From contig OZ241880.1 in assembly GCA_965203505.1 (NCBI GenBank), forward strand, positions 2,858,206-2,922,205: DNA of 64,000 nucleotides. The letters are read 5' to 3'. The stretch comes from Dehalococcoidia bacterium. GTDB lineage: Bacteria > Chloroflexota > Dehalococcoidia > Lucifugimonadales > Lucifugimonadaceae. A program made the position numbers and the translations under genes. The notes below the pieces were generated by a model. The model was not told where the DNA came from, made no database searches, and worked only from the letters and a program-made list of their open reading frames with translations. Below, piece after piece: positions 5,201 through 50,413 of the stretch (position 1 is the stretch's first letter; every line of letters begins with the position of its first letter).

Positions 5201-5893
5201 TACGCGGAGGGAGACCCTCAAGCCCTCGCCGACGTGTCATTGGATATCGAGTCAGGCCAAACCGTCGCTATCGTCGGCCGATCGGGTGCAGGTAAAACCA
5301 CGATCGCGTACTTGATGATGCGATTCTGGGACCCTGACCACGGTAAGATCGGCGTCGATGGCCACAGACTAGAAGAGTATCGTCTAGACGACCTACGAAG
5401 CCGCATGGCCCTCGTCGCGCAGGACACATACCTCTTCAACGGCACCATTCGCGAGAACATCCGGCTCGGCCGACACGGCGCCACCGATCGCGAAGTGGAA
5501 GAAGCTGCCCTGCAAGCGAACGCGGCTGAATTCATCGAGTCGTTCCCTGATGGCTACGAAACAAGGGTCGGCGAACGCGGCATGCAACTCTCTGGCGGTC
5601 AGAGGCAGCGCATCGCCATCGCCCGCGCAATCCTCAAAAACGCGCCTGTACTGATCTTGGACGAGGCCACATCGCACTTGGACGCCATCAGCGAAAGCAC
5701 AGTCCGCGAAGCCTTGGACCGCCTAATGATCGGACGCACAACCATCGTCATCGCCCACAGACTCTCCACAATCCGCGACGCCGACAAAATCCTCGTACTC
5801 GACGAAGGCGAAGTCGTCGAACAAGGCACACACGAACAACTACTCTCCCGCGGCGGCCTATACGCGCAATTGGTATCAGCACAGATGACATGA
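2267..5893 (+). CDS. Fused tandem ABC exporter (TMD-NBD-TMD-NBD), CydD/CydC-like
   Basis: 1208-aa ORF with two half-transporters in one chain. NBD1 has GASGAGKST, LSGGQRQRL and LLLDEA. A His/Pro-rich linker (HSHAPHVHEPALPHLSTGHHHAPP) follows. NBD2 has GRSGAGKTT, LSGGQRQRI and LILDEA. The TMD motif VEGIERMETFFGQYLSQ resembles CydDC-type exporters (from memory of the family). RBS aaggtggag lies upstream. Confidence 0.9.
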   Translation: MYFDHRLFELTRGVRTRILFAAVLGLIAVGAGVSRLAVSGVIIYRVLAGQASFSALAMPLLTIAGLIVVRSLFQYWQNSVSHHTANIVKIKLREEVYGHLLELGPGYADRTRTGDLALTLVEGIERMETFFGQYLSQFIVSVIAPIAIFAFMVTLDLYIALIFLAFSALTMAVPEVFRRWNRESSLKRRRAYGEFGSDFLDSVQGLATLKAFGQSKRRGAQLAQRANNLYRSTMGVMAANQTTSAATIFFMTTGAAMALVVGAIRVSNGDMELRPLLIVLMLGVEIFRPMRELTNLFHMGMNVLSSAQSVFSIIDSKVAITDPEANTDAPIPELAPEVAFEGVTFGYDGGNRPALSDVSFQLRSGETLGVAGASGAGKSTLVSLMYRFYDPQSGLIKLGGHDLRELPLSTIRDNISVVNQDTYLFHGTVADNLRFGKPEATQQELEEAARVANAHEFIARLPNGYDTIVGERAVRLSGGQRQRLAIARALLKDAPILLLDEALSSVDAENESVIQEALERLMENRTTLVIAHRLSSIINADRILVLDDGHAVEIGTHNELIAANGTYAGLMRQQTETGVDDVAFPTAAAAHSHAPHVHEPALPHLSTGHHHAPPSQHQASREEVNIRSLAVWLRLVQLVRPVRFQFIGTVALGVLNHGSVIALAAFSALLVGAVFRDEPLTTTLIIVSVLAPISAILFYLETWQAHDMAFRLLAKMRIDLYEKLEPLAPAYMVRRRSGDFVSVVGGDVETVEFFYGHAVSPMIVAILIPVGLLITLAVIAWPIAAVLAPFLVAVAVSPYFANERTERLGHEIRGRMGDIHAFMVDSIQGMREIAAFRRGADRKTELTEKGWAYAGYLVRFQKSQAFQIGFIEAMMGIGGLAVLATGVWLVLNDQLERTLLPAVSVLALASFSPVTELARTMKQMMETLAASRRILAIHDEEVPVRDGPGISPLPSAGEGQGEGDHPTPTVDFEQVAFTYAEGDPQALADVSLDIESGQTVAIVGRSGAGKTTIAYLMMRFWDPDHGKIGVDGHRLEEYRLDDLRSRMALVAQDTYLFNGTIRENIRLGRHGATDREVEEAALQANAAEFIESFPDGYETRVGERGMQLSGGQRQRIAIARAILKNAPVLILDEATSHLDAISESTVREALDRLMIGRTTIVIAHRLSTIRDADKILVLDEGEVVEQGTHEQLLSRGGLYAQLVSAQMT

Positions 5894-7576: not shown

Positions 7577-8560
7577 ATGCCTGCCATGACGAAAGAGCAA
7601 CTCGAACACTTTGAGCACTTCGGATTCGTCACAGCCGAGGGCGTGCTCGATCCAGAAAACGTCATCGATCCAGTGATCGAAGAGTACGCTGGCGTCCTCG
7701 ACGACCTAGCTGACGAACTATACGAGGAAGGCAAGATCAGTTCCAAGTACGAGGAACTGGAGTTTGGCGAGCGGGTCACGCAGATTTACGCCGAATCCGA
7801 CGAGGTATACAACGGCCACTTCGACTTTTCTCTGCCGCAAGGCGGCATCACCGAGGAAACACCGTTCTGGGCCGGTCCCGCAGTCTTCAACGCATTGACC
7901 GCGCCGGGCCTATTGGATGCCGTCGAATCTTTCATCGGGCCCGAAATCTACTCCAACCCAGTTCAGCACGTAAGGATCAAAGTTCCGGAAAGCCGCGCGC
8001 CTCGGGACGAAAAGGGTCACGTGAAGTTCGGGATCACACCTTGGCACCAAGACCAAGGCGTCGTGAATCCCGATGCCGACGAGACGCAGATGTTGACGGT
8101 GTGGTTCCCGCTAATGGATGCCGAAGTAGAGAACGGATGTCTGTCCGTAGTGCCAGGATCGCACAAGAACGATCTGCTAACACACTGTCCGGGTTTCGAC
8201 AACGGTTTGCAATCGGGACTTCAAATTCCTGAGACCGAATTCGAAGTCGGCAAGGCGGTGCCGATACCGCTCAAGAAGGGCGACGCACTCTTCATGACCA
8301 AGTTCACCGTGCACTCGTCTTTGCCCAACAACAGCGACCGCATCCGCTGGAGCTTTGACCTCCGCTACAACCCGATCGGGCAATCTACCGGACGCACGAG
8401 TTTCCCCGGCTTCGTCGCCCGCAGCCGCAGCAACCCGCAGAGCGAACTGCACGACCCGGCGATCTGGAACGAATTGTGGACAGACGCGCGGGATTCACTG
8501 GCTAAAGGCGAACAACCGTCGTTCAATCGCTGGGACGGCAGCGAACCGGCCTGCGCCTAA
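7577..8560 (+). CDS. Phytanoyl-CoA dioxygenase (PhyH) family Fe(II)/2-oxoglutarate oxygenase, paralog 1
   Basis: 327 aa. H-x-D in TPWHQDQGV and distal His in FTVHSS. Highly similar to the next two ORFs over the full length. Confidence 0.8.
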   Translation: MPAMTKEQLEHFEHFGFVTAEGVLDPENVIDPVIEEYAGVLDDLADELYEEGKISSKYEELEFGERVTQIYAESDEVYNGHFDFSLPQGGITEETPFWAGPAVFNALTAPGLLDAVESFIGPEIYSNPVQHVRIKVPESRAPRDEKGHVKFGITPWHQDQGVVNPDADETQMLTVWFPLMDAEVENGCLSVVPGSHKNDLLTHCPGFDNGLQSGLQIPETEFEVGKAVPIPLKKGDALFMTKFTVHSSLPNNSDRIRWSFDLRYNPIGQSTGRTSFPGFVARSRSNPQSELHDPAIWNELWTDARDSLAKGEQPSFNRWDGSEPACA

Positions 8561-8562
8561 CC

Positions 8563-9546
8563 ATGCCCGCAATCACCAACGAGCAGCTCGAACATTTCGA
8601 GCACTTCGGCTTCGTAACCGCCGAAAACCTGATCGATCCAGAAACCGTGATCGATCCCGTCATCGACGAATACACCGACGTCCTCGACAACCTCGCCGAC
8701 AAACTCTACGCCGACGGCACGATCAGCTCGAAATACGAAGAGCTGGAGTTCGGAGACCGAGTAACCCAGATCTACGCCGAATCGGGCGAAGTCTACAACG
8801 GCTATTTCGACTTCTCACTGCCGCAGGGTGGCATCAAGGAAGACACGCCATTCTGGGCAGGCCCCGCTGTCTTCGACGCACTCACCGCGCCGGAACTACT
8901 GGACGCCGTGGAGTCGTTCATCGGCCCCGAGATCTACTCCAATCCCGTCCAGCACGTCCGAATAAAAGTGCCGGAAAGTAGGGCACCACGCGACGAAAAA
9001 GGAATGGTGAAATTCGGCGTCACACCTTGGCATCAGGACGCCGGAGTAGTCAACCCCGACGCCGATGAATCGATGATCCTCACGGTCTGGTTCCCGTTGA
9101 TGGACGCCGACGCCGAGAATGGCTGCCTCCAAGTGGTTCCCGGATCACATCGAGAGGATCTGCTGACTCACTGCCCCGGGATGAAGAGCTCATCGCCGTC
9201 CGGATTGCAGATACCAGAGTCCCAGTTCGAGGTCGGCAAAGCGGTCCCGATCCCGTTGAAGAAGGGCGACGTGCTGTTCATGACGAAGTTCACGATCCAC
9301 TCATCGCTACCCAATAAAAGCGATCGCATCCGCTGGAGCTTCGACTTGCGATACAACCCGATCGGACACTCGACCGGCCGCACAAGCTTCCCCGGCTTCG
9401 TCGCTCGCAGCCGCAGCAACCCCAAAAGCGAATTGCAAGATCCAGTCATTTGGAACGAATTGTGGACCGAGGCTCGCGACTCGCTAGCCAAGGGCAATGA
9501 GCCAGCATTCAACCGCTGGGACGGCACCGATCCCGCCTGCGCTTAA
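8563..9546 (+). CDS. PhyH family oxygenase, paralog 2
   Basis: 327 aa, collinear with paralog 1 (MPAITNEQLEHFEHFGFVTAE..., TPWHQDAGV, FTIHSS). Starts 2 nt after the stop of paralog 1. Confidence 0.8.
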   Translation: MPAITNEQLEHFEHFGFVTAENLIDPETVIDPVIDEYTDVLDNLADKLYADGTISSKYEELEFGDRVTQIYAESGEVYNGYFDFSLPQGGIKEDTPFWAGPAVFDALTAPELLDAVESFIGPEIYSNPVQHVRIKVPESRAPRDEKGMVKFGVTPWHQDAGVVNPDADESMILTVWFPLMDADAENGCLQVVPGSHREDLLTHCPGMKSSSPSGLQIPESQFEVGKAVPIPLKKGDVLFMTKFTIHSSLPNKSDRIRWSFDLRYNPIGHSTGRTSFPGFVARSRSNPKSELQDPVIWNELWTEARDSLAKGNEPAFNRWDGTDPACA

Positions 9547-9575
9547 GCGTCTGCATCGAAAGGAACCGTTGAACC

Positions 9576-10559
9576 ATGCCCGCGATGACCAAAGAGCAAC
9601 TCGAACATTTCGAGCACTTCGGGTTTGTTACCGCAGAGGGCGTGATCGACCCCGAGAGAGTGATCGACCCGGTGGTCGACGAATACGCTGGAGTGTTGGA
9701 TAGCTTGGTTGAAGAGCTATATGAGGAAGGGAAGATCAGCTCGAAATACGAGGATCTGGATTTTGGGGAGCGGGTGACGCAGGTCTATGAGGAGTCCGGT
9801 GAGGTGCACCAAGGGTATTTCGACTTCACGCTTCCGCAGAGAGGCGTCACGGAAGATACGCCGTTTTGGGCCGGCCCGGCAGTTTTCAATGCGATGACAT
9901 CGCCAGACCTGTTGGATGCGGTGGAGTCTTTCATCGGACCGGAGATCTACTCGAACCCGGTGCAGCACATTCGCATCAAGGTGCCGGAAAGCCGTTCGCC
10001 TCGCGACCACCTGGGCCGGGTGAAGTTCGGTGTCACGCCGTGGCATCAGGACATGGGGGTCATAACGCCCGACGCTGACGAGTCGTTGATCCTCACCGTC
10101 TGGTATCCACTGATGGATGCAGATGAAGAAAACGGATGCCTGCAAGTCATCCCGGGATCGCACCGCGACGAAGAACTGTTGACGCATTGCCCGGGCGGAA
10201 AGAAAGTACTCGGCAGTTTGCACGTACCAGAAAGCGAGTTCGAAGTAGGGAAGGCAGTCCCGGTACCCGTGAAGAAGGGCGATGCTCTGTTCATGACGAA
10301 GTACACGATCCACTCATCCTTGCCCAACAACAGCGACCGCGTCAGATTCAGCATGGATCTGCGCTACAACCCCATCGGTCAATCCACAGGCCGCACAAGC
10401 TTCCCAGGCTTCGTAGCACGCAGCCGCAGCAACCCCGAAACCGAACTGCACGACCCAGTTGCTTGGAATCAGTCGTGGTTAGACGCGAGGAGTGCGCTGG
10501 CTAAAGGCGAGGAGCCCCCCTTCAACCGCTGGAACAGCGACCATCCGCTTTGTGCGTAG
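9576..10559 (+). CDS. PhyH family oxygenase, paralog 3
   Basis: 327 aa, collinear with paralogs 1 and 2 (TPWHQDMGV, YTIHSS). Confidence 0.8.
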   Translation: MPAMTKEQLEHFEHFGFVTAEGVIDPERVIDPVVDEYAGVLDSLVEELYEEGKISSKYEDLDFGERVTQVYEESGEVHQGYFDFTLPQRGVTEDTPFWAGPAVFNAMTSPDLLDAVESFIGPEIYSNPVQHIRIKVPESRSPRDHLGRVKFGVTPWHQDMGVITPDADESLILTVWYPLMDADEENGCLQVIPGSHRDEELLTHCPGGKKVLGSLHVPESEFEVGKAVPVPVKKGDALFMTKYTIHSSLPNNSDRVRFSMDLRYNPIGQSTGRTSFPGFVARSRSNPETELHDPVAWNQSWLDARSALAKGEEPPFNRWNSDHPLCA

Positions 10560-16826: not shown

Positions 16827-17348
16827 TTAACGGGGTTCGAAAACGATTACTTCGACTGACGGGAGTCGGTCAAAAGCCGATTCGATCTTCTGTTTCACAT
16901 CCGTCCAACGGAGCCCACCGAGACCGCACCCTAGCGGTGGGACCGCAATTGAGTGGATGTCTCGCGATTCAATCTCTGCTGTTAAAGACTCCAAGCCTGT
17001 TTCGATGTATTCAATTTTGCTGGGCTGGCGCCAGTGGTTTTTCGTAGGAAAATTAACGATGAAACGCGGAGATTCGCAACTTGGGCTTCCGTCAACAAAC
17101 ATATTGAGTTGAGTAGCATCGGATCCTTCGTCGAAATCCCCGTTTCGTTCGACGGCGGTGATGAAAACACGACCGGTACGAACATCGCCTTTATCGCAGG
17201 CGTCGGCGTATAGCTTGAAGTTGTCAGGAAACCGTTTTTTGAATTCGAGAGCGATCCCTTTGCCCATGATGCCTTTGCAATTGACTGTGTTGACTAACGC
17301 ATCCACTTGTTCGTCGAGAAGATTTCCCGAATTCCTGAATTCGATCAT
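16827..17348 (-). CDS. darG: Macrodomain protein, DarG-like antitoxin (macrodomain only)
   Basis: 173 aa. VDALVNTVNCKGIMGKGIALEFKKRFP is a macrodomain ADP-ribose-binding signature. It lies directly downstream of darT. Confidence 0.8.
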   Translation of the reverse strand: MIEFRNSGNLLDEQVDALVNTVNCKGIMGKGIALEFKKRFPDNFKLYADACDKGDVRTGRVFITAVERNGDFDEGSDATQLNMFVDGSPSCESPRFIVNFPTKNHWRQPSKIEYIETGLESLTAEIESRDIHSIAVPPLGCGLGGLRWTDVKQKIESAFDRLPSVEVIVFEPR

Positions 17349-17363
17349 TGGCTGGCCTCACTC

Positions 17364-18029
17364 CTAATAGTACCAGTCGGGCCGAACGACCACCGACGGA
17401 CGGTACTGCGCTTGTTCTGTCATCGACATGACTTGCCGTTGCATCTCTTCAGAAATGACGCCAATCCTGAGGATCCATGTCCACGGGAATCTGCCTCCAA
17501 GGAGGAACTCCGCTTGTTTTACTTCGCTTTTTTCGTTGTAGTTCCGTTCCCAGTCGTTGGAAGTAACCGTGAGCCAATCGATCTCGTTGATGTCAGCGAG
17601 GTTTTTGTAGTCCTCGAACCTGTTCGATGCGGCACTGGCGTTTGTGAACGCCCAGCGGATCCGGTTTCGGTTGGCGAATCTCACGACGTCGTGCAGGTCT
17701 GCTTCGAGGTGGGCGATGTTTTCTTGTCCACCGCGATAAGGGAGATCAGGGCGGGTCCCATGTATGTTTCGATGGATTGCTCGTAGCATGACGGATCGTG
17801 GACAGAAGTAGAACGGAACACATTGCCCGACAGTCAGGTCTGGATGACTATGTAGACGGCGTCGCATTCTTCGTGACTTAATGTGGGTCATGCCAATGGA
17901 TGTACCTGCGTTGGTTGCTAGCGATACTTCGGAATCGGGGAAAATCCAGCCGTCTTTGATGATCGAAGCAAGGGTGTTCATATGGACGATGTGATAGATC
18001 TTTGGCTTGTCGGGAATCATGACATGCAA
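17364..18029 (-). CDS. darT: DarT (DUF4433) ssDNA ADP-ribosyltransferase toxin
   Basis: 221 aa. N-terminal KIYHIVHMNTLASIIKDGWI and C-terminal KQAEFLLGGRFPWTWILRIGV (catalytic-Glu-type AEFL motif). Start is TTG at 18029 or ATG at 18020. Confidence 0.8.
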   Translation of the reverse strand: MHVMIPDKPKIYHIVHMNTLASIIKDGWIFPDSEVSLATNAGTSIGMTHIKSRRMRRRLHSHPDLTVGQCVPFYFCPRSVMLRAIHRNIHGTRPDLPYRGGQENIAHLEADLHDVVRFANRNRIRWAFTNASAASNRFEDYKNLADINEIDWLTVTSNDWERNYNEKSEVKQAEFLLGGRFPWTWILRIGVISEEMQRQVMSMTEQAQYRPSVVVRPDWYY

Positions 18030-21841: not shown

Positions 21842-23092
21842 ATGCGTGTTATCCCGATATCGCTTTTGATCGTCTTTGCGGCGATTGTTGTGGTCGCCTG
21901 CGGGCAGGCAACAGACGAACCACTTGTTGCGACTTCGGTGTCGACTGAGGTTCCAACCGCAGCTCGGGCACCGGTAAGCACTCCGACTGTTGCCCCAACA
22001 GAGGCGATTCCCACACCGACAACCGAACCCGCGCCCGCGGCCAAAGTTGTCGAACCGACTGCCGCCACAGCCAAGCCTGAATCAGCGGAGCCGCAGCCAA
22101 CAGCACCTCCCGAGGCGAAACTGGCCCCCGAGCGCGATCTTGATATCGTTACGCTTCTTCCCCCTGACGCTATACCCGCGATCAACAATCCAATGTTCTT
22201 CTATACCACCGAAGAAGCGGACACGGTGTACAGCGAAGGCGAATATGTTCTCGGTGTTGAGATTGACGGCGACGCTCGGGCTTATTCCGTCCCTCTTCTC
22301 AGCAGTCATGAGATAGTCAACGACACCGTAGGGGGCAGACCGATCGCGGTCACGTGGTGACCGCTCTGCTTTACTGGAATCGGGTATTCCAGAGAGGTCA
22401 ATGGACAAACTCTAACCTTCGGCGTGTCGGGCAAACTGACGTTGAACGCGCTGATCATGTTCGACCGCGAAACCGACACCTTGTGGAGCCATTTCCTGTC
22501 CGAAGGAATTGAGGGAGAACTTAAAGGTTTCAAACTCACCAATGTGCCGCTGATTCTCACCACCTGGAGGGAGTGGAAGCAATCGTTCCCTGAAACAAAG
22601 GCGCTGTTTAAACCAAGTAAGGGGTTCGATCCGTACACCAGTTACTACCTGCGCGGGGATGCGGGAGTAATCGGCGAAACCAACAGAGATGACAGGATCT
22701 ACGGCAAGGATTTGGTCCTTGGGGTGGGATTCGATGAGGGCCCAATCGCCTTCCCGCACACTGCACTCCAAGAGCAGGAAGTTATTAACACCGAAATCAA
22801 CGGACAACCGGCAGTCATCTACTACGATTCGCAGAATACGACGGCATTGGTTTACTCCCGCACCGTTGGTGATGAAACTTTGGAATTCTCGGTGTCCGTT
22901 GAGGAAGAACCCGAAGATGTATCTCGAAGGTGGTTGGTTGATGAGGCTTCGGGCACGAAATGGCTGCCGCTCAACGGGCAGGCATGGTCCGGCGAGTTCC
23001 AAGGCACGCGTTTGGATCCACTCCACGGCGTCAATGTATTCTGGTTCGCTTGGAGCGATTTTTACCCCGATACAGAGATCTACGGCCAATGA
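21842..23092 (+). CDS. DUF3179-domain lipoprotein with in-frame TGA (candidate selenocysteine) at 22358-22360
   Basis: ORFs 21842..22360 and 22424..23092 share one frame. Read-through gives ...IVNDTVGGRPIAVTW-U-PLCFTGIGYSREVNGQTLTFGVSGKLTLNALIMFDRETDTLWSHF..., a continuous DUF3179-like sequence with the TGA at the first Cys of the CPLC motif. The N-terminus has a lipoprotein signal (LLIVFAAIVVVAC-G). Confidence 0.7.
22374..22392 (+). promoter_or_regulatory. SECIS-like hairpin downstream of the in-frame UGA
   Basis: CUGGAAU-CGGGU-AUUCCAG has a perfect 7-bp stem and a G/U-containing 5-nt loop. It starts 13 nt after the UGA. Confidence 0.5.
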
Positions 23093-23625
23093 GCGTCGAT
23101 TTGAGAGATTGGATCCGCAACGTTCCGGACCATCCAAAACCTGGAATCCAATTCAAGGACCTGACTCCGATCTTTGCTGATCCCGCGGCTTTTCGCGCCT
23201 CCTTAAACTGGTTCACGGATCAAGTGACGAGGTTCAGGCCGGATGTGATTGCCGCCGTCGATGCCCGGGGCTTCGTCTTCGCATCGCCCGTAGCTGATCG
23301 GCTAGGCATCCCCCTTGCGCTCGTAAGGAAAGGCGGCAAGCTCCCCCCGCCGGTAATCAAAACCCAGTATTCGCTTGAATATGAGGACTTGTCAGAGATC
23401 GAGATGCAGTCCGACGCTCTTTCATCAGGCCAACGCGTCGTGATCGTCGACGATCTATTGGCCACTGGCGGCACAGCCGTCGCGTCTGCTGAACTTGCAG
23501 AGGAACTAGGCGCGCAAGTGGTGGCTCAAATCTTTTTGGTCGAACTCGCGTTTTTGGACGGCCGCGATCTCATTACGAGCCGCGATCCAAACTGCGAAGT
23601 TGTCGCTGACATCGTCTACGAATGA
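23089..23625 (+). CDS. apt: Adenine phosphoribosyltransferase
   Basis: MSVDLRDWIRNVPDHPKPGIQFKDLTPIF... and PRPP motif VVIVDDLLATGGT. The ATG overlaps the upstream stop (ATGA). Confidence 0.92.
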   Translation: MSVDLRDWIRNVPDHPKPGIQFKDLTPIFADPAAFRASLNWFTDQVTRFRPDVIAAVDARGFVFASPVADRLGIPLALVRKGGKLPPPVIKTQYSLEYEDLSEIEMQSDALSSGQRVVIVDDLLATGGTAVASAELAEELGAQVVAQIFLVELAFLDGRDLITSRDPNCEVVADIVYE

Positions 23626-25092: not shown

Positions 25093-25887
25093 GTGGCTGA
25101 CCGACGAAGAATGATTGACATGGATTCAACAAATGAAGTGATCGAAGACGCCGGGAACGCTTTTCAACATCTGGTTGAGACCGTTCGCCGATTGAGAGAT
25201 CCTGACGGCTGCCCTTGGGACGAGGAACAAACCCATCTGTCCCTGCGACCAAATCTGTTGGAAGAGGCCTACGAAACCTTAGAGGCGATCGAAAGCGAGG
25301 ATGGTGCTGCAATCGAGGAGGAACTCGGTGATCTATTGATCCAGATCGTTTTCCATGCCGACATCGCGCGCAGGAACAGAGATTTCGATGCCAGTTCCGT
25401 CTGCCGCAAAGTCGCCGAAAAACTCATTCGCCGCCACCCGCACGTGTTCGGCGACGCACAGAAGCTGGGTTCAGGCGAAGACGTTATCGACCGATGGGAG
25501 CAAATCAAGCGCGAGGAGGCGGGCGGAGTGCGTTCAATCGTCGCGTCGGTTCCGAAGTCACTGCCGGCGTTGGCACAGTCATCGGTTCTTCAACGTCGGG
25601 CCAAGCGCGCTGGCCTACGTCTTTCGTCGCGATCAATCGATATCGACGATTTCGCTCAACGCGACACCGACGAGTCGGATGACGAAATCGAGTTACGCGC
25701 CGGCGAATTCCTTGCCGCTGCCGTTCGGAGGGTTCAGGAGCAAGGTGTCGATCCCGAGACGGCGCTGTTGAGAGTCAATTCGATCCTCCGCGATCGGGTG
25801 TTGCGCGCCGAAGAACTTGCCGAAGGAGTAGCGTTGGCGGAACTACCCGATGACGAGCGGGAACGGATCTGGGAACGCGCTCGTTAA
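25093..25887 (+). CDS. mazG: MazG nucleoside triphosphate pyrophosphohydrolase
   Basis: LRDPDGCPWDEEQTHLSLRPNLLEEAYETLEAIE and EELGDLLIQIVFHA motifs. Confidence 0.9.
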   Translation: MADRRRMIDMDSTNEVIEDAGNAFQHLVETVRRLRDPDGCPWDEEQTHLSLRPNLLEEAYETLEAIESEDGAAIEEELGDLLIQIVFHADIARRNRDFDASSVCRKVAEKLIRRHPHVFGDAQKLGSGEDVIDRWEQIKREEAGGVRSIVASVPKSLPALAQSSVLQRRAKRAGLRLSSRSIDIDDFAQRDTDESDDEIELRAGEFLAAAVRRVQEQGVDPETALLRVNSILRDRVLRAEELAEGVALAELPDDERERIWERAR

Positions 25888-26933
25888 CTGCTGACTTCAA
25901 CAGCTTTGCCGTTGAAAGAGGTCACTTCGCCCACCACTGATCCGGAAACCCCGCGGCCTTTCAGGTCGTTCAACAGACCGTCGACTGAATCGCTGTGAAT
26001 CGAGATGAGCAAACCTCCAGAAGTCTGAGGGTCGCAAAGAAGCAACCTATCGCTATCTTGAATGCCGTCGCCCCACGTCACCGCGTCGTCGCAAGATTCG
26101 ATGTTACGGTGAGTCCCGCCCGGCGCGATACCTTCCCTAAGAAGTTCGTCTACACCCGGCAAAATCGGGATCGACGATTTGTTCAAACGCCCGGTAGTGC
26201 CGCTCGCCCGCATCATCGTCATTAGGTGACCCACCAATCCGAAACCCGTAACATCGGTCGCCGCGTTCGCCTTTGCCTTGGTCATGGCCTGTGCAGAGTC
26301 GCGATTCAACCGCAACATCGAACTGACCGCGCCATCCAAAACGTCATCCACGGCATTCCCGTTTTTCAACGCGGTAGTCACGATGCCAGTTCCAATAAAT
26401 TTGGTAAGAACCAAAACGTCGCCCGGTTGCGCCGTCGAGTTCTGGACTTGGCGCCCCGGTTCCACAGTGCCTACGACCGAAAGTCCATATTTTGGCTCAT
26501 CGTCGTCAACCGTATGCCCGCCTACGATGATCGCACCCGCTTCCGCAACCTTCGCCGCACCTCCTTTGAGAATCTCGGCGAGGATTTCCATCGGCAAGCT
26601 GCGCGGAAATGCTGCGATGTTCAGCGCGGTGATTGGACGTCCGCCAACCGCGTAAACGTCGGAAAGAGCGTTGGCTGCCGCGATCGCACCGTATGTGAAC
26701 GGGTCATCGACGATCGGCGCGAAGAAATCGACAGTCAGAACCAAGGCGGCGTGATCATCTAAACGGTAGACGGCAGCGTCATCTCCGTGTTCGAAACCGA
26801 CCAACAAATCTGGGTGCAGGTCGGCTCCATTCATCAGCCCGCCCAAAACCTGGGCGAGTTCGCCTTGGCTAAGCTTTCCCGCTCAACCAGCACAGCTGGC
26901 GAGTTCCGTCAGCCGCGGCACCTTTTCGTTCAT
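25884..26933 (-). CDS. selD: Selenide, water dikinase (selenophosphate synthetase) with in-frame TGA (Sec) at 26883-26885
   Basis: From ATG 26933 the sequence reads [58 protein letters not shown]. This aligns with E. coli SelD LTQYSHGAG-C-GCKISPKVL...LLVGNETRDDAAVY, placing the TGA at the Cys17 position. The ORF track only reports the part downstream of the TGA. Confidence 0.85.
26841..26855 (-). promoter_or_regulatory. Candidate SECIS apical hairpin in selD
   Basis: The mRNA reads GCCCA-GGUUU-UGGGC, about 27 nt after the UGA. A second small hairpin GGCG-AACU-CGCC lies just upstream. The fold has not been computed. Confidence 0.3.
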
Positions 26934-42643: not shown

Positions 42644-45600
42644 CTGAACTTCCTCAGATTTACACTGCGCCGGATCTCGGGCGAAGGAACGCTTTTAATA
42701 GGCGCATTTATCGGGTCTCTGATCACCGCAACTGTTGTCGCCGGTGCACCCGTGTACCTTCGCACGCTCGAACGCGCCGGCGTTCAAGACACGATCGACT
42801 CTGCCGACAGTACCTACACCCACCTTCAAGTGAGCACAAGGTGGCTACCATTGGAAGTCGGCAAATACGTCGCGGCGAACGAATCGCTAGCCGCCGCCCA
42901 GGAAGAATATCTTGACGGTGCTTTCACGGGCGATGCGTCCCTGATAAAAACACGTCGTGCCAATTGGGGCAAGCAAGGCGAAGGATTGCGCCGGCACAAC
43001 GAAGCCTCGCGGGCAATGTTCTTGTCGATGACCGGCATCGACGATCGCATCGTGTACATCGACGGTCGCGCACCGTCAAATCGTCTCGTTTACTCCGAGA
43101 ACGTTCCCACCGTCGAGGCCGCTATCGTTTGGGATCGCGCATCACGGTTCGACATCCGAATCGGCGATGTCATCGAAACCGTCCCGGAAGCCCGCGGCAT
43201 CGGTCTCGTCAATGTCACCATCACCGGAATCTTCACTGTTCCCGATCCGTCCGACGACTATTGGGTCGGACTATCGGACCCTATAGTTCGCCCGATGCCG
43301 ATAGTAGATGGGCGCGAACCACCAATCGTGATGCTGGTTCATCCTTCCGTGATGCTGAACACGGTGGCCGAAGCCAACGCCGGGTTGCCCGCCGATTTCA
43401 GTTGGTATCTCTACGTCGATACCGACTACTTCAAACTTTTGAACCTCAACGAATCCATCAGCAGGCTCACAGAATTCGAAGAAAGGATCGGTATCGAGAT
43501 CACGCGCGCCGACGTGTTGACGATCCTCGATTCGCGGTTGAATTCGTTGCAACGACGGATGTTGTTCGCTCGAATACCGATGTTGCTATTGGCCGCGTTG
43601 GCAATCACATCGATCGCCTACTATCTGTTCATGGTCGCCGGCATCATCGCCCGGCGTCGATCCCTGGAAACATCGATGCTGCGCAGCAGAGGCATCACAG
43701 TTTTGCAGGTGATCCGCTCATACGCGATCGAAAGCGTGTTGATAGCCGGAGTGCCGGCTTTAGTCGCGCCAATCGTCGCCGTCGGCTTGGTAGCATCCCT
43801 CGGGCTGCTGCCCGCATACCAAAGCGTCAACGAATCACTGTTCCTGAATGTCGAATTTGCTTGGCAATCATGGATCTGGTCGATCACCGCAGGATTCGCA
43901 GTCTTCGCGATATTGCTGCTGCCGGCCATACTCGGCACCCGCCGCGGGATCATCGACCAGTATCAGTCGGAGGCACGACCAGAACGCGCACCACTTTTCC
44001 AGCGCTACTACTTAGATGTCATTTTCCTCGTGATCGGTTCACTCGTCTGGTGGGAACTCACCACTAGAGGCACGGTCATCGCCTCGACCAGAGAGGGCGA
44101 AAACTCCGCTGACATCACGCTGCTGTTCTCACCCGCAATATTCTTGCTCGTCGTCGCACTCCTGTTTATGCGTCTCTTCCCGATCCTGGCGCAAATCATC
44201 GCGGTCGTCGGATCCAGATTCCCATCCGTTGAGGTGACTCTCGGACTTTGGCGGCTTCGCCGTAGCCCGTATTGGTACGTCTGGCCGGTTTTGCTGCTGG
44301 TTCTGGTCTCTGGCTTGGGTGTGGTTTCTGGCACTCTGGCTTCAACTCTCGCGCGAAGCACGGAAGAACAGATCCTCTACGAATCGGGAGCCGATTTCCG
44401 GTTTGTACCGACCCAACCGCCGAGCAATGAAAAAGTTGAAGCATCTCGAAACATCGATGGCGTCGTCAACGCCACACAGGCGTTCAGAGCTTCCGGTCGA
44501 TTCGGCACCACGGCACTGGGATTTCAGTTCAATCTCCTCGCCGTCGACTCAGACATATTCGCCCAAACCGCTTGGTTCAGAGAAGATTTTTCGGAGACCG
44601 AGTTCCAAGAGCTGACCTCGAAGATCGCCGTCGAGGTTAAACCTGAACCTATATTCCTGCCGCCCGACACCGTCAAACTCGGTGCATGGGCTAGAGCCGA
44701 GCCGAGGGTCGAAAATCTGTTCCTTTGGTACGTCATCAAAGACGCCAGAGGACGTTCGAGAACTATCACCCTCGGGCAGATAGAAGGCGAGTGGCAACAG
44801 CAGGTTGCAGAACTTTCGAGCAAGTTCACCGAACCCGCTCAGATTGTGTCGGTGCAGACCTTCATGCAAGCGGGGCCCGACGGAGCTGAGCCTACCGTGG
44901 TTTTCATCGACGACGTTTACGCCGAAAACAGCCAAGGAGAGAGATTCATCCTCGCTGATTTCGACGGTTCGGAAGAATGGACCGGCATGCCGACTTCCAA
45001 CGGCCTCGACGTAACTTTCGGCATTTCAGATGAACCCGACGGACTCGTTGTCGGGGTGCCCGGTGATCGTGGGCCGTCAGTCGCTCGAATCGAGATGGAC
45101 CGCGGCAACGATCAAGGCGTTAGAGGTATCTATCGAACCGCGACCGGCGAACCGCTGCCCGTGATCGCCAGCGATGCATTGATGTTCTCGACAAACACCG
45201 ATGTCGGATCGAAATTTATCGTTCAAATCAACGGAGGATACTTGCCCGTCGAGATCGTCGACACCGTGACATACTTCCCGACGTTGAACCCCTCACGCGC
45301 ACCGTTCATGGTTTCGAACGTCGAATCGACTATCGATTTCCTGGAGTTGCGTGGCTTGACGGCTCAAAGACCCAACGAACTTTTCGTCTCGATCGAACCC
45401 GATATGCACGCTTCTGCGCTGCGCGACTTGCGTGAAGTTCTCGGCTTCGGCGCGTTGACCGACCGCGCCAGCCTGCTTGAAGATTCAACTGTAGACCCAT
45501 TAGTAGTGGCAGGATGGCGAGGTATCAGTATCGTCTCCATTCTGATGGCTGGTGTCGCCGCAGCTTTCGGTTATATGACCTATCTTGCCGCGCACGCTTA

Positions 45601-45934
45601 CCGCACCAAAAAAGAATCGGCCCTGCTATCGAGTATGGGAATGAAAACGTCTTCATTCGGCGTGTTGGTGTTGATCGAACATGCCATGGTGGCCCTGCTC
45701 GGAATGGGCATCGGGATCGCTAGCGGTTGGTACGTGAGCCGTCTCGCGGTCAGCAGTCTGACGTTCACCCAATCGGGCGGCGAACTCTTACCACCTTTCG
45801 TGATGCAGACGAACTGGGTCCCTGTAGCGATTCTGGCCGCTGTCATCATTGGCGCGACGCTCATCGCCGTTTACACCATCATGCGCCAATACCGCACTTT
45901 GCCGATACACGAGTTGACACGCGACGCGAATTAA
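42644..45934 (+). CDS. Large double-FtsX-domain ABC permease 1 (MacB/BceB-like, about 10 TM)
   Basis: The ORF track starts at GTG 42752, but the in-frame upstream codons (after TAA 42629-42631) encode NFLRFTLRRISGEGTLLIGAFIGSLITATVVAGAP, the TM1 that matches the N-terminus of permease 2. The only start-like codon there is CTG at 42644. Two FtsX modules are separated by large extracytoplasmic domains. Confidence 0.75.
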   Translation: MNFLRFTLRRISGEGTLLIGAFIGSLITATVVAGAPVYLRTLERAGVQDTIDSADSTYTHLQVSTRWLPLEVGKYVAANESLAAAQEEYLDGAFTGDASLIKTRRANWGKQGEGLRRHNEASRAMFLSMTGIDDRIVYIDGRAPSNRLVYSENVPTVEAAIVWDRASRFDIRIGDVIETVPEARGIGLVNVTITGIFTVPDPSDDYWVGLSDPIVRPMPIVDGREPPIVMLVHPSVMLNTVAEANAGLPADFSWYLYVDTDYFKLLNLNESISRLTEFEERIGIEITRADVLTILDSRLNSLQRRMLFARIPMLLLAALAITSIAYYLFMVAGIIARRRSLETSMLRSRGITVLQVIRSYAIESVLIAGVPALVAPIVAVGLVASLGLLPAYQSVNESLFLNVEFAWQSWIWSITAGFAVFAILLLPAILGTRRGIIDQYQSEARPERAPLFQRYYLDVIFLVIGSLVWWELTTRGTVIASTREGENSADITLLFSPAIFLLVVALLFMRLFPILAQIIAVVGSRFPSVEVTLGLWRLRRSPYWYVWPVLLLVLVSGLGVVSGTLASTLARSTEEQILYESGADFRFVPTQPPSNEKVEASRNIDGVVNATQAFRASGRFGTTALGFQFNLLAVDSDIFAQTAWFREDFSETEFQELTSKIAVEVKPEPIFLPPDTVKLGAWARAEPRVENLFLWYVIKDARGRSRTITLGQIEGEWQQQVAELSSKFTEPAQIVSVQTFMQAGPDGAEPTVVFIDDVYAENSQGERFILADFDGSEEWTGMPTSNGLDVTFGISDEPDGLVVGVPGDRGPSVARIEMDRGNDQGVRGIYRTATGEPLPVIASDALMFSTNTDVGSKFIVQINGGYLPVEIVDTVTYFPTLNPSRAPFMVSNVESTIDFLELRGLTAQRPNELFVSIEPDMHASALRDLREVLGFGALTDRASLLEDSTVDPLVVAGWRGISIVSILMAGVAAAFGYMTYLAAHAYRTKKESALLSSMGMKTSSFGVLVLIEHAMVALLGMGIGIASGWYVSRLAVSSLTFTQSGGELLPPFVMQTNWVPVAILAAVIIGATLIAVYTIMRQYRTLPIHELTRDAN

Positions 45935-45940
45935 ATCGAG

Positions 45941-48900
45941 ATGCGCAGCACGATACAACTCATGCTCAAACGCACAATCGCGAACTGGCGATTGTTGTCG
46001 GCCGTAATCATCGGCTCCGTCCTCGCAGGCACCATCATGTCTGCCACCGTTGTCTATTTCGAATCCCTCAGGGACATCGCGCTCCAGAAGGAGTTGGCAG
46101 ATCAAAATCCCGCCGACCTCGACATACTCATCGAAGCCGATCAGACTCCGATCAACAACGAAACGCACGCGGAACTCACCAGCTCTATGGAGGCCTTGCT
46201 GCTCGCCCGCGTCGGGAAGTTCACCACGCAATACAACCGCGCCATGCGAAGTTGGACCTTCTTTGTCGATGAACCTCCCGAACTGGTTCCGATGGGCGAG
46301 TGCCCTTGCAGGCCGACAGTCGCAGAACCCGATTCCTTCAACGAACGCGACGAACCATTGATCGAGTGCGATTGCCGCCGAATTCAATGCTTGACCGTGC
46401 CGGACGAACCGCACAGCATCGATGTCACCCAAGGGCGATTCCCAGAGATCAACGCCGAGCCTGCCCCCGGCTCCGATCTGACGATAGAAGCATTGCTCGA
46501 CGAGGACGCATCCGAACTTTTTGATCTCGAACTCGGCGACGTGATCCCGGCACGTCCTCACTGGGACGAACAGAACCTCAACGTCAACATCCGCCTGGCT
46601 GGCATCTACGAACGGGCACATCCCGAAGACCCAGAGTGGAGGATTTTCGACCAAGCGTTCGGTTCCCGAAGCACAACTTTGGAGTTCGCACAGTTCATCG
46701 TGCCGCAGCAAGCGATGCTCGAAACCCTGGGCGTCTATTTCCCCAACATGGGCGCGGAATACGCATGGTTCCTAGACGTTGAGCCGACCACGATCCACGC
46801 AACCGACACACAAGAGATCCGCCAAACACTCGAGATCACCGAAAACGAGCTCAGATCGCAGGTCGACGGATTCGTGCTGGATACCGAGCTCGACAAAACA
46901 CTGCTCCGGTACGAGATCGAACTCTTCTTTAACCGGTTGCCAATGTTCATCGTCCTGATCCTGATCGTCTTGGTCGTGGTTTACTACACCGCCACGCTCG
47001 CCGGACTTCTGATTGAGGCACAATCTGCCGATGTCGCTCTGCTGAGAGGACGCGGCACAACGTCAAGGCAGTTGTTATTGATGTTTGCGGTCGAGACGGT
47101 GATAATCGCAGCTTTCGCCATAGTCTGCGGTCCGTTCCTCGCCATCTGGGGCGTTTCATTCCTCGGCACGTTGCCATTCTTCGGCGAACTTAATGCCGGT
47201 GAAGCCCTGCCCGTGAACCTGACGCGCAGCGTATACGTCATGGCTGCCATAGGTTCGGTAATGACCATGATCGCGCTCATGATCCCGGCATTTCGAGTTA
47301 CGCAACAAGGCGTCATCGCCGAGCGCGCTGGGCGAGCCAGACCCCAGAGATTAGCCTTCATCCAACGCTACTACCTAGACCTAGGATTTCTGGCTGTGGT
47401 CCTGTTTCTTTTCTGGCAACTCACCAGACAAGGCTCGTTCGTGGCTAACGACCTATTCGGCGAAACCACCGTGAACCAAGTGATACTAGCAGTTCCAGCG
47501 CTCTTCCTAGTCGCCGCCGGCGTCGTATTGCTGCGGGTCTTCCCGCTGGCAATGGATCTACTCGGAAGATTGATGACCACCGGTATCGCTTCGAGGATCA
47601 TCTCCCCCGCAGTGGTGTTGGGAATATGGCAGATGGCGCGCAACCCAGCCCACTACTCCCGGGTTTCGCTTCTCTTGATACTGACCGCTGGTTTGGGCGT
47701 GTTCGCCGCAAGCTTTGCCGCAACCCTCGAGCGCAGCGCCCGCGATCAGGTCCTCTACCAAACTGGCGGCGAAATCCGCGTGCCCGGAATTTCGAATCGG
47801 CCCGGCGGACGGTCGTTCAATCTCGAAGAGGACCTCAAGAGCATCAAAGGCATCGAGGACGCCACCACAATCTACCGTCTGCGCGGTTCCTTCACCGCTG
47901 GATTCAACTTCGATCAATTCTCAGTCCTAGCCGTAGACCCCGACGAAATCAGCGGCATAGCATGGCGACGTGAAGACTTTACCGACGACGACTACGCAAC
48001 AACATTCCAATCGATAGCGTTCGATTCGGACGAGGGTATACCGCTGCCAGAAGACGCACGGTTCATTACCGCCCGTGTAAAGCCGTTATTCCCGATGCAA
48101 GAGGTGCGATTCGTCGCCCGACTCAGCGACGCCAACAATCGGTTTTACAGCGTCGATTTAGGCAATCTGTTCCCTGAATCGCGTTCACGAAACCGATTCC
48201 CGTGCGTTCTCGAATATGCAGACTCCGAAAACGACGAGTTCCCGTTGCCTTCATGGTGTCGCATCGGCACGTCCCTGCAACCAGCGCCGTTCGGAAGGGA
48301 ACGCGTCCTGCTGCCTGTCGGCCCACTCAAGCTACATTCGATCGGCGTTTCGACTTTCGACGGATCGCTGAGAAGCGGTGCCGTCGACATCGACGACATC
48401 TCCACCATCAGCAACGACGGCACCAAGATGTACCGTCTCGAATTCTTCGATGGCGAATCCGGCTATACATGGAATCTGATGAGACCAACATCAGAGGCTT
48501 TTGCCGATACGCTCGATCCATCGCCTTTGCCGCCCGAAGAGGCCGAAAATCCGGGCATAATGCGACTGCGCTGGGCTGCTGGCTCCTTGAACGAATTCCG
48601 CGGAATCTCATCCGGACGCACTATCGAAAACATCCCGGTGTTGGCGAGCGAGTCACTGCTCGACAAGATCGGCGCAAGAGTCGGCGAAACAATCGGCGTC
48701 TCGATCGACAACGAAAGAACCTCCCTCGATATCGTCGGAGTCATCGACTATTTCCCGACACTCAACCCAGAAGAGAGCAGCTTCGTCGTCATGGATTTCG
48801 ATGCTGCCCACAACTTGGTCAACGCCCGGCGCCACACCGGCGAACGCGTCGCGAACGAAGCCTGGCTCAAGACCGAAGCCGGAACGCCATCTATCGAACA

Positions 48901-49486
48901 GCTAGAGATGATGAAGGACGAAGCCGACGGCTCTCGCCTTCGATACACCGCCACGTCTTCAGTCGAACGCAACATCGATCTGTTACGCCTAAGGTCTGGT
49001 CCCATTAACGACCGTTTGGCACTGTTGGCCGGCGTGAGCGTCGATCCGTTGGTCTCCGAAGGTTGGAGAGCGCTGCTAGGCGTCGCGTTCGTTACCGTTC
49101 TGATAGTGAGCGCAATCGGATTCGTCGTCCATACACGCGTCGCGTTCCGCCGCCGCCTCGCCGAATTCGCACTCCTGAGGACCATCGGACTATCGATGCG
49201 TCAGCTCCTGCTGCTCATATTGCTCGAACAAGTGATCGTGGTGGGAGTCGCCGTCGCGATCGGCATCTTCATGGGCACTCGCCTAGGCGACACGATCATT
49301 CCATACCTCGCACGTTCCGGCCAAGACGCCAACGTGGTGCCGCCGATGACCCTTGAAATATACTGGACTGGGTTCGCGACCACGTTCGGATTGCTCGCCA
49401 TCGTATTCGCAGTGGTCATCGCAATCAGCCTAGTTTCCGTCTACAGCATGGCTATCCATCGAGTGATGCGCATCGGAGAAGCCTAA
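45941..49486 (+). CDS. Large double-FtsX-domain ABC permease 2
   Basis: 1181 aa. MRSTIQLMLKRTIANWRLLSAVIIGSVLAG..., two FtsX-type 4-TM modules, and a Cys-rich first extracytoplasmic domain (ECPCRP...ECDCRRIQC). Confidence 0.8.
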   Translation: MRSTIQLMLKRTIANWRLLSAVIIGSVLAGTIMSATVVYFESLRDIALQKELADQNPADLDILIEADQTPINNETHAELTSSMEALLLARVGKFTTQYNRAMRSWTFFVDEPPELVPMGECPCRPTVAEPDSFNERDEPLIECDCRRIQCLTVPDEPHSIDVTQGRFPEINAEPAPGSDLTIEALLDEDASELFDLELGDVIPARPHWDEQNLNVNIRLAGIYERAHPEDPEWRIFDQAFGSRSTTLEFAQFIVPQQAMLETLGVYFPNMGAEYAWFLDVEPTTIHATDTQEIRQTLEITENELRSQVDGFVLDTELDKTLLRYEIELFFNRLPMFIVLILIVLVVVYYTATLAGLLIEAQSADVALLRGRGTTSRQLLLMFAVETVIIAAFAIVCGPFLAIWGVSFLGTLPFFGELNAGEALPVNLTRSVYVMAAIGSVMTMIALMIPAFRVTQQGVIAERAGRARPQRLAFIQRYYLDLGFLAVVLFLFWQLTRQGSFVANDLFGETTVNQVILAVPALFLVAAGVVLLRVFPLAMDLLGRLMTTGIASRIISPAVVLGIWQMARNPAHYSRVSLLLILTAGLGVFAASFAATLERSARDQVLYQTGGEIRVPGISNRPGGRSFNLEEDLKSIKGIEDATTIYRLRGSFTAGFNFDQFSVLAVDPDEISGIAWRREDFTDDDYATTFQSIAFDSDEGIPLPEDARFITARVKPLFPMQEVRFVARLSDANNRFYSVDLGNLFPESRSRNRFPCVLEYADSENDEFPLPSWCRIGTSLQPAPFGRERVLLPVGPLKLHSIGVSTFDGSLRSGAVDIDDISTISNDGTKMYRLEFFDGESGYTWNLMRPTSEAFADTLDPSPLPPEEAENPGIMRLRWAAGSLNEFRGISSGRTIENIPVLASESLLDKIGARVGETIGVSIDNERTSLDIVGVIDYFPTLNPEESSFVVMDFDAAHNLVNARRHTGERVANEAWLKTEAGTPSIEQLEMMKDEADGSRLRYTATSSVERNIDLLRLRSGPINDRLALLAGVSVDPLVSEGWRALLGVAFVTVLIVSAIGFVVHTRVAFRRRLAEFALLRTIGLSMRQLLLLILLEQVIVVGVAVAIGIFMGTRLGDTIIPYLARSGQDANVVPPMTLEIYWTGFATTFGLLAIVFAVVIAISLVSVYSMAIHRVMRIGEA

Positions 49487-49534: not shown

Positions 49535-50413
49535 TTGGACGCAAGCAACAGCGAATACATCATCTGCAGCGGCCTCTACAAGATATACAAAGCCGCCGGA
49601 CTCGAAGTCGTCGCACTGCGCGGCTTGGAACTCACCGTCTATGAAGGCGAGATTATCGCAATCGTCGGCGCTTCAGGCTCCGGCAAATCGACCCTTCTGA
49701 ACATCCTGGCAGGATACGATTCACCATCCGCTGGCACCGCCCGTGTCGGAGATTTCGACCTGCTCCACATGACCAGCAAAGAGGTCGTCGACTACCGACG
49801 CCACGAAGTCGGATTCATCTGGCAGGAAACCTCACGAAACCTCTTCCCGTATCTCACCGCCGCCGAAAACGTCGAACTACCCATGGTTCTGACCGGCGTC
49901 TCACAAACCGATCGCAACGACCGCGCGAAAGAGCTTCTAGAGATCGTCGGACTCGGCCACCGCACCGCACACAGACCGGAGCAGCTGTCAGGAGGCGAGC
50001 AGCAGCGAGTCGCCATCGCCGTCAGCCTCGCGAACCAACCGCCACTTTTGCTGGCCGACGAACCCACCGGAGAACTCGATGATCTCACCGGACAAGAAAT
50101 CCTAGACCTGTTCAACGAAGTCAACCAGCAGTTAGGCACCACTATCGTCATCGTCACACACGATCCCGCCGTCGCGACCAGCGTCGGACGAGCCATCACG
50201 ATCCGAGATGGCAAAACCAGCACCGAAACCACACGCAAAGTCTCGTTCCAACGCAGGGTCGGGGGGAGCGCGAGCGACACTGAAGAGTTCCTGATCGTCG
50301 ATTCGTCTGGTTCCGTGCAAATTCCCAGAGACATGCTCGACCAACTCGAAATTAACCGAAGAGTCCGAGTCGCCGTTAACCAAGGAAAGGTGACCCTTGA
50401 ATCAGGTGAATGA
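49535..50413 (+). CDS. ABC ATPase 1 (MacB/LolD-type) with about 65-aa C-terminal extension
   Basis: GASGSGKST, LSGGEQQRV and LLLADEPTGELD. The C-terminal tail is ...FLIVDSSGSVQIPRDMLDQLEINRRVRVAV. Confidence 0.9.
   Translation: MDASNSEYIICSGLYKIYKAAGLEVVALRGLELTVYEGEIIAIVGASGSGKSTLLNILAGYDSPSAGTARVGDFDLLHMTSKEVVDYRRHEVGFIWQETSRNLFPYLTAAENVELPMVLTGVSQTDRNDRAKELLEIVGLGHRTAHRPEQLSGGEQQRVAIAVSLANQPPLLLADEPTGELDDLTGQEILDLFNEVNQQLGTTIVIVTHDPAVATSVGRAITIRDGKTSTETTRKVSFQRRVGGSASDTEEFLIVDSSGSVQIPRDMLDQLEINRRVRVAVNQGKVTLESGE

Follow-up and report, generated by a model that had tools for sequence, protein, structure and literature searches.

In the genome of a Dehalococcoidia bacterium (Chloroflexota; GenBank assembly GCA_965203505.1, contig OZ241880.1), a gene for a lipoprotein with a DUF3179 domain is interrupted by an in-frame TGA which, on comparative evidence, is almost certainly a real selenocysteine (Sec) codon with its own RNA insertion signal. 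We analyzed this gene within a window of 64,000 nucleotides (positions 2,858,206 to 2,922,205 of the contig, forward strand), whose numbering is used below unless another contig is named. Very probably, the gene is a functional selenoprotein gene, in which UGA is read as Sec via a selenocysteine insertion sequence (SECIS) and whose DUF3179 product is exported and lipid-anchored. A preceding sequence-only reading of the window had proposed such a selenoprotein, and all features that it claimed are present where it had placed them. The Sec form of DUF3179 has been known since 2007, and its detection here is a correct rediscovery.

The gene comprises a single 416-codon frame on the forward strand (21842-23092), running from an ATG at 21842 to a terminal TGA at 23090-23092, and the TGA at 22358-22360 is its sole interruption; no further stops or frameshifts were found. 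The two open reading frames (ORFs) that had been joined by the sequence-only reading, 21842..22360 and 22424..23092, indeed share this frame and are separated by that TGA and 21 sense codons. Around the TGA, the read-through product reads ...GGRPIAVTW*PLCFTGIGYSREVNGQTLTFGVSGK... With the TGA read as Cys, Pfam returned one DUF3179 (PF11376) match of 274.3 bits (E = 1.7e-81), far above the family cut-off of 27 bits and covering profile positions 2-292 of 292, and NCBIfam held no family model for the read-through protein. In an alignment with 43 full-length homologues (consensus ...HEIVNDxVGGxPVAVTW-C-P-L-C-F...), the TGA column is Cys in every homologue (43/43; motif W/Y-C-P-L-C, W-U-P-L-C in the window gene), as is the position three residues later (also 43/43). 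The notion of one continuous DUF3179 block with the TGA at the first Cys of a (W/Y)CPLC motif is thus borne out by the full-length Pfam match and by this invariant column. Farther upstream, the His156 column holds His in 39 of 44 sequences and Arg in 4/44, and the Glu157 column holds Glu in all 44; these two residues are candidate partners of the U-x-x-C site.

The internal TGA recurs in other genomes. In a 5.8-billion-sequence collection, the closest database proteins (52-77% identity) are all C-terminal fragments of 228-231 residues that begin just past the TGA. Their contigs come from 7 independent assemblies, and in 7/7 an upstream DUF3179 fragment stops in TGA at W-[TGA]-P-L-C. In a wider survey of one genome per GTDB species, the best 80 loci comprised 57 with TGA, 21 with TGC or TGT, and 2 that were unresolved at this codon. 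The TGA form was found in Dehalococcoidia, Anaerolineales, Promineifilaceae, Chloroflexia, a SAR202 genome, and one member of Methylomirabilota; the Cys form occurred mainly in Acidimicrobiia and other Actinomycetota, and also in some Chloroflexota. From these loci, the Sec form of DUF3179 appears to predominate in Chloroflexota. Nearest to the window gene (74-79% identity) are relatives from Dehalococcoidia and from metagenome-assembled genomes labeled 'Chloroflexi bacterium'. Collection of Cys- and Sec-containing orthologues had been suggested as a check by the sequence-only reading, and in the collected set TGA recurs in independent assemblies alongside the TGC and TGT forms. Three contigs (L044, L129, and L135) each carry two Sec-form DUF3179 copies, one of those on L044 with the variant motif T-Y-U-P-L-C-D. 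Between the window gene and its orthologues, the proportion of synonymous differences (pS) is 0.67-0.91, which means that synonymous sites are saturated, and the ratio of nonsynonymous to synonymous substitution rates (dN/dS) is 0.07-0.2 on either side of the TGA, where dS is calculable. By these values, both halves of the gene are under purifying selection.

The second line of evidence is a hairpin 13 nucleotides (nt) past the TGA, CUGGAAU-CGGGU-AUUCCAG at 22374-22392, which the sequence-only reading had described as a perfect 7-bp stem and which is present as such, with a 5-nt loop. Thermodynamic stability alone makes it just mildly unusual: the region 22358-22420 folds at -18.9 kcal/mol (z = -2.69), and 3/200 shuffles were as stable. 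In close orthologues, synonymous positions hardly vary within codons +3 to +11 downstream of the TGA, whereas those of the flanking codons do so freely. A metagenome pattern scan combined with the genome loci yielded 143 distinct 60-nt Sec-form sequences. In a set of 133 distinct 45-nt sequences, all 7 stem pairs are individually intact in 96-100% of cases, with exchanges of the types U-A/G-C, G-C/C-G, A-U/C-G/U-A/G-U, and A-U/G-C, and the loop is invariably N-G-(G/U)-N-U. Across 90 distinct Sec-form sequences, the stem is paired in 97.9% of cells compared to 82.5% in shuffles (0/500), covariation amounts to 0.357 compared to 0.089 in shuffles (0/500), and 71 compensatory (both-side) cells are distributed over 4/7 stem pairs. 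In controls with the 3' arm displaced by 1-3 nt, just 17-54% of cells paired. In register, 7/7 pairs form in 124/135 Sec forms, compared to 1-5 of 7 in Cys forms.

Published criteria for bacterial SECIS elements specify a loop of 3-9 nt, a stem of 4-16 bp, a G in the first two loop positions, a distance of 16-37 nt from the UGA, and a minimum free energy of at most -7.5 kcal/mol (PMC13188914). The window element falls within all of these ranges, with a 5-nt loop (CGGGU) that has G at position 2 and then another G, a 7-bp stem, a UGA-to-loop spacing of 20 nt, and an energy of -13.5 kcal/mol when the conserved stem is imposed on the fold. These values, together with the covarying stem and its specificity to Sec forms, support the earlier proposal that the hairpin is a bacterial SECIS. 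The lowest-energy fold of the region, an alternative inner pairing plus a UGACC/GGUCA outer stem, was rejected, neither part being conserved in orthologues.

The likeness to the SECIS of the Escherichia coli fdhF type lies in a stem-loop within the coding region directly 3' of the UGA and in a small apical loop with G followed by G or U at a fixed distance. The two differ in sequence, and the window element has no evident bulged U and no conserved lower stem. In the minimal fdhF element, the upper stem begins 11 nt after the UGA, compared to 13 nt in the window. In the window (22373-22393) and in the Sec-form loci, the stem runs through the codons of residues +5 to +11, and because it lies in their codons, residues +6 and +10 covary, as Gly/Ser (GGA/UCC), Gly/Ala (GGC/GCC), Ala/Gly (GCC/GGC), or Ala/Ser (GCU/AGC); Cys forms mostly have Asp at +10. 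The Sec-form set, in which the SECIS covaries cleanly, thus illustrates how an RNA stem constrains encoded amino acids. Depending on the length considered, it comprises approximately 135-145 distinct sequences, on which bacterial SECIS predictors might be trained or tested. We also considered a terminator-like 8-bp palindrome that contains the UGA, GCGGUCAC-GUG-GUGACCGC at 22346-22364 (+), as a UGA-sequestering hairpin and rejected it. Five of its 8 pairs are set by the A-V-T-W-U-P-L codons, and its three free pairs, which occur in 51-68% of Sec forms, are about as common in Cys forms, so that the palindrome is a by-product of the coding sequence.

Could the two ORFs instead be remnants of a broken Cys-form gene, or did an error in sequencing or assembly create the TGA? 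In all public records that we found, the gene is called as two ORFs. The same TGA is, however, kept in the 7 closest orthologous contigs and at the 57 species-representative loci, which makes a base-call error very unlikely, and this conservation, combined with the low dN/dS of both halves at saturated synonymous sites, excludes a pseudogene or an assembly error for practical purposes. The lack of other stops or frameshifts and the conserved, covarying SECIS speak against such an origin as well, and we consider its probability negligible. It is likewise highly improbable that the UGA is a true stop delimiting two polypeptides, or that it is read through without Sec, by near-cognate insertion of Trp or Cys or under a reassigned code. 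A GTG start is available downstream at 22424, but orthologues do not keep downstream starts at the same position, and the TGA is located inside a beta-hairpin of one compact module, so that the fragments would not fold. Since TGA is the normal stop of 20/45 window genes, including the DUF3179 gene itself, the genetic code is not reassigned. Read-through without Sec is difficult to reconcile with a hairpin specific to TGA forms, and also with the nearby selenophosphate synthetase gene selD, which likewise needs Sec decoding.

That selD itself carries a Sec codon, as the sequence-only reading had stated, agrees with an in-frame TGA at 26883-26885, which is kept in 11/11 orthologous loci examined. 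Downstream of this TGA is a hairpin, CUCGCCC-AGGUUUU-GGGCGGG, with a compensatory change of C-G to U-A in the orthologous loci L004 and L005, and AIRS/AIRS_C Pfam matches are recorded for selD orthologues. No component of the Sec machinery other than selD was recognized in the window. Several null results weigh against Sec decoding of the DUF3179 gene: a Pfam scan of approximately 40 window ORFs recovered neither selA nor selB, both of which are also missing from the available orthologue flanks; ARAGORN detected no tRNA-Sec, whether in the window or at 60 related loci; and Rfam at gathering thresholds gave no match in the window. On a more distant Chloroflexota contig (L209, 1497-7056), a Sec-form DUF3179 gene (TGA 5276-5278) is directly beside divergent selA-selB and is followed immediately, with an ATGA overlap, by a Cys-form paralogue (P0050).

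In the favored explanation, recoding of the DUF3179 gene, the UGA at 22358-22360 would be translated as Sec, and the stem-loop 13 nt downstream (7-bp stem, loop N-G-[G/U]-N-U) would work as a bacterial SECIS, recruiting SelB with Sec-tRNA(Sec) to the ribosome. The resulting product of approximately 43 kDa would be exported, lipid-anchored at Cys20, and spaced from the membrane by a Pro/Thr-rich linker (residues 21-108), which differs in length and sequence between orthologues. The lipoprotein signal noted previously (V-V-A-C20) is present, and the lipobox Cys is kept in 7/7 reconstructed orthologues (pattern match to [LVI][ASTVI][GAS]C), predicting an exported lipoprotein in all orthologues examined.

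Structural information came from an AlphaFold2 prediction for a Cys homologue (50% identical) rather than for the window protein. The model is almost wholly beta (predicted local distance difference test score, 93.1; predicted template modeling score, 0.88), and its two halves have an identical order of secondary-structure elements. A comparison of the N-terminal with the C-terminal module by hhalign gave a probability of 99.9% (E = 3.6e-33), which, together with the matching order of elements, shows that DUF3179 arose by tandem duplication of one module, approximately 130 residues long. The conserved S-x-H-E...(U/C)-P-L-C signature is confined to module 1, with the CxxC at the turn between two strands; by extension, the window protein would consist of a tandem pair of all-beta modules with the reactive U-P-L-C just in the first, at a beta-hairpin turn. 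Foldseek searches against the PDB gave high-probability local matches (0.85-1.0) exclusively to Rieske folds, over approximately 100 columns and with weak E values (0.01-0.5). These included NirD (3c0d and 4aiv), the Rieske domain of carbazole dioxygenase and its ferredoxin, and PetC3, with target-normalized TM-scores of 0.45-0.62 that apply to the local match only. Searches of the PDB by sequence and by profile returned no relative, and a Pfam scan of 45 family members at E <= 10 detected no Rieske or other second family. The Rieske motif is C-x-H-x15-17-C-x-x-H. The resemblance of DUF3179 to Rieske/NirD-type beta-fold domains is local and weak, extending over approximately 100 residues, and includes a ligand-like motif of comparable spacing on two neighboring loops. 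DUF3179 differs from them in that C-x-H and C-x-x-H are absent, with S-x-H-E and U/C-P-L-C in their places, in the lack of a sequence-level relationship, and in the marginal E values.

As to chemistry, the extracytoplasmic redox function suggested by the sequence-only reading is plausible. We favor a selenenylsulfide-based extracytoplasmic oxidoreductase, for which the prospects appear about even: Sec173 and Cys176 would cycle between a selenol/thiol and a selenenylsulfide state, and a TlpA-like thioredoxin may recycle the DUF3179 protein where its gene adjoins. Known extracytoplasmic thiol:disulfide oxidoreductase selenoproteins (DsbA-like, thiol:disulfide interchange, and TlpA-like proteins with UxxC or CxxU) are similar in being exported or membrane-anchored, in the U-x-x-C arrangement, in their plausible redox activity, and in that TlpA-like genes neighbor Cys-form DUF3179 genes. 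Genes for TlpA/Redoxin-like thioredoxin lipoproteins were located at most 5 kb from Cys-form DUF3179 genes at 7 loci from several lineages (L082, L085, L086, L069, L087, L084, and L208). Unlike these selenoproteins, DUF3179 does not adopt a thioredoxin fold in the model, which shows two repeated all-beta modules with a weak Rieske likeness. Three observations count against the redox function. No thioredoxin fold was found among the Pfam or Foldseek matches, in line with the all-beta model; a TlpA-like neighbor was present in just 7 of approximately 21 Cys-form loci and in 0 of the Sec-form loci examined; and the His and Glu 16-17 residues upstream of the Sec, combined with the weak Rieske-like similarity, suit a metal site equally well.

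This raises the possibility that, with the same recoding, a metal ion such as Cu, Zn, Fe, or Hg is bound at the tip of a Rieske-like module by Sec173 and Cys176, with His156 and/or Glu157 as further ligands, and that the protein is an extracytoplasmic metal-binding or metallo-redox protein and not a selenenylsulfide oxidoreductase. The exclusively Rieske-fold nature of the high-probability Foldseek matches points in this direction, although their E values are weak and no sequence-level Rieske signal appears even at E <= 10. The spacing in S-x-H-E-x15-[U/C]-P-L-C parallels that of the Rieske motif, and His, Glu, and both Cys positions are conserved in module 1 only, but Arg replaces the His in 4/44 homologues. 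One Cys-form locus (L085) has upstream genes for a MerA-like reductase and an HMA (heavy-metal) P-type ATPase, a metal-related neighborhood seen in this single locus. Several catalogued UxxC selenoproteins bind metal (PMC9312934, PMC13188914). On balance, we regard such a metal site as the main alternative, though as less likely than not. It is tempting to speculate further that DUF3179 represents a new class of extracytoplasmic selenium/thiol centers built on a duplicated Rieske-like module, with a Sec/Cys-x-x-Cys plus His/Glu metal or redox site and with the Sec form predominant in Chloroflexota; we put this forward tentatively, as an unlikely rather than a likely generalization.

With respect to previous work, 'DUF3179 domain-containing protein, pfam11376/PF11376, UxxC/T' is listed as a selenoprotein family with GenBank examples in two catalogues (PMC9312934, 2022; PMC13188914, 2026). 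Both credit Zhang & Gladyshev 2007 (PMC1976440), who first reported the family from the Olavius algarvensis delta-1 symbiont, probably under the name 'OS_HP1' to judge from the order of the tables. Each of the new families in that study had a downstream stem-loop resembling a SECIS, and most had Cys-containing homologues. The window gene agrees with the catalogued selenoprotein in its Pfam domain, the Sec position (first residue of U-x-x-C), the SECIS-like hairpin just downstream, and the existence of Cys-containing homologues. It differs in its host, Dehalococcoidia (Chloroflexota) as opposed to a deltaproteobacterial symbiont, and in nothing essential. The form was thus already catalogued, and its presence in a Dehalococcoidia genome is unsurprising; a 2026 database paper places Dehalococcoidia genomes among the selenoprotein-richest, with 46-49 genes each. 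Function, localization, and fold of the DUF3179 selenoprotein family are not given in the accessible literature, in which we also did not find the Sec form described as predominant in Chloroflexota, nor any mention of conserved lipoprotein anchoring, of tandem modules, or of amino acid/RNA covariation in the SECIS stem.

The practical value of our analysis lies in the annotation of DUF3179 selenoprotein genes. Given that the public gene calls found all split the gene in two, an abundant exported selenoprotein of Chloroflexota appears to be systematically misannotated. Under the speculative reading of a new class of centers, in which the Sec form would be the prevailing version in Chloroflexota, marine SAR202-type and sponge-associated lineages included, DUF3179 would rank among the main selenoproteins that this phylum exports. 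The tandem modules and the His/Glu/Sec/Cys constellation yield testable hypotheses on DUF3179 function. Coordinates of the gene, its parts, and two nearby genes are compiled in Table 1, in which those of the two modules are approximate, having been transferred by offset from the homologue P0006.

Table 1. Features of the DUF3179 selenoprotein gene and of two nearby genes in the window
Feature	Position	Strand	Remarks
Complete selenoprotein coding sequence (predicted)	21842..23092	+	416 codons plus TGA stop; internal UGA = putative Sec173; architecture common to orthologues
Signal peptide with lipobox V-V-A-C	21842..21901	+	Cys20 (21899-21901) is the predicted lipid-attachment residue; pattern match
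Low-complexity linker rich in Pro, Thr, Ala, and Glu	21902..22165	+	Residues 21-108, from lipid anchor to domain
DUF3179 domain (PF11376)	22166..23074	+	Residues 109-411; unbroken match across the TGA
Repeat module 1	22217..22603	+	Residues ~126-254; contains S-x-H156-E157 ... U173-P-L-C176
His156 and Glu157 codons	22307..22312	+	17 and 16 residues before the Sec; conserved
UGA codon, predicted to be read as Sec173	22358..22360	+	First position of U-P-L-C
Cys176 codon (TGC)	22367..22369	+	Putative resolving/partner Cys of U-x-x-C; invariant in orthologues
SECIS upper stem-loop (predicted)	22374..22392	+	5' arm 22374-22380, loop CGGGU 22381-22385, 3' arm 22386-22392
Repeat module 2	22694..23080	+	Residues ~285-413; degenerate copy without H-E and CxxC
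Phosphoribosyltransferase-family gene (apt-like)	23089..23625	+	ATG overlaps the DUF3179 stop (ATGA)
selD (selenophosphate synthetase)	25884-26933	-	Sec codon TGA 26883-26885; ..ELASCAG-U-AGKLSQ..; 2.8 kb from the DUF3179 gene

Neighborhood clustering over 80 loci revealed no universally conserved partner gene of DUF3179, and the neighborhoods are mostly lineage-specific. In the window, the ATGA overlap suggests that the DUF3179 gene is probably cotranscribed with the apt-like gene, which probably encodes an adenine phosphoribosyltransferase, and the same arrangement is repeated in the related loci L001-L006 and L008-L015. Directly downstream of this lipoprotein-apt operon is a homologue of Lit, the lipoprotein intramolecular transacylase (PF07314; 23616-24344, -). 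Lit is known from Firmicutes, and a Chloroflexota copy beside a lipoprotein gene, with its synteny kept in L001-L006 and L008-L015, is curious. Two of the Cys-form loci with TlpA-like neighbors (L082 and L087) also encode a polytopic membrane protein with an N-P-C motif like that of CcdA and without a Pfam match.

Elsewhere in the window, genes for DarT (single-stranded DNA thymidine ADP-ribosyltransferase) and a DarG-like Macro-domain protein form a toxin-antitoxin pair (16827-18029, -) between an ornithine cyclodeaminase-like and an amidohydrolase gene. Because these flanking genes are adjacent in the syntenic loci L002 and L003, the pair appears to have been inserted. At 7577-10559 (+), the window encodes three PhyH-family (phytanoyl-CoA dioxygenase) paralogues in tandem, all exactly 327 residues long. 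Two very large adjacent ORFs of 1060 and 1181 residues (42752-49486, +) are followed by two ABC ATPase genes (49535-51116).

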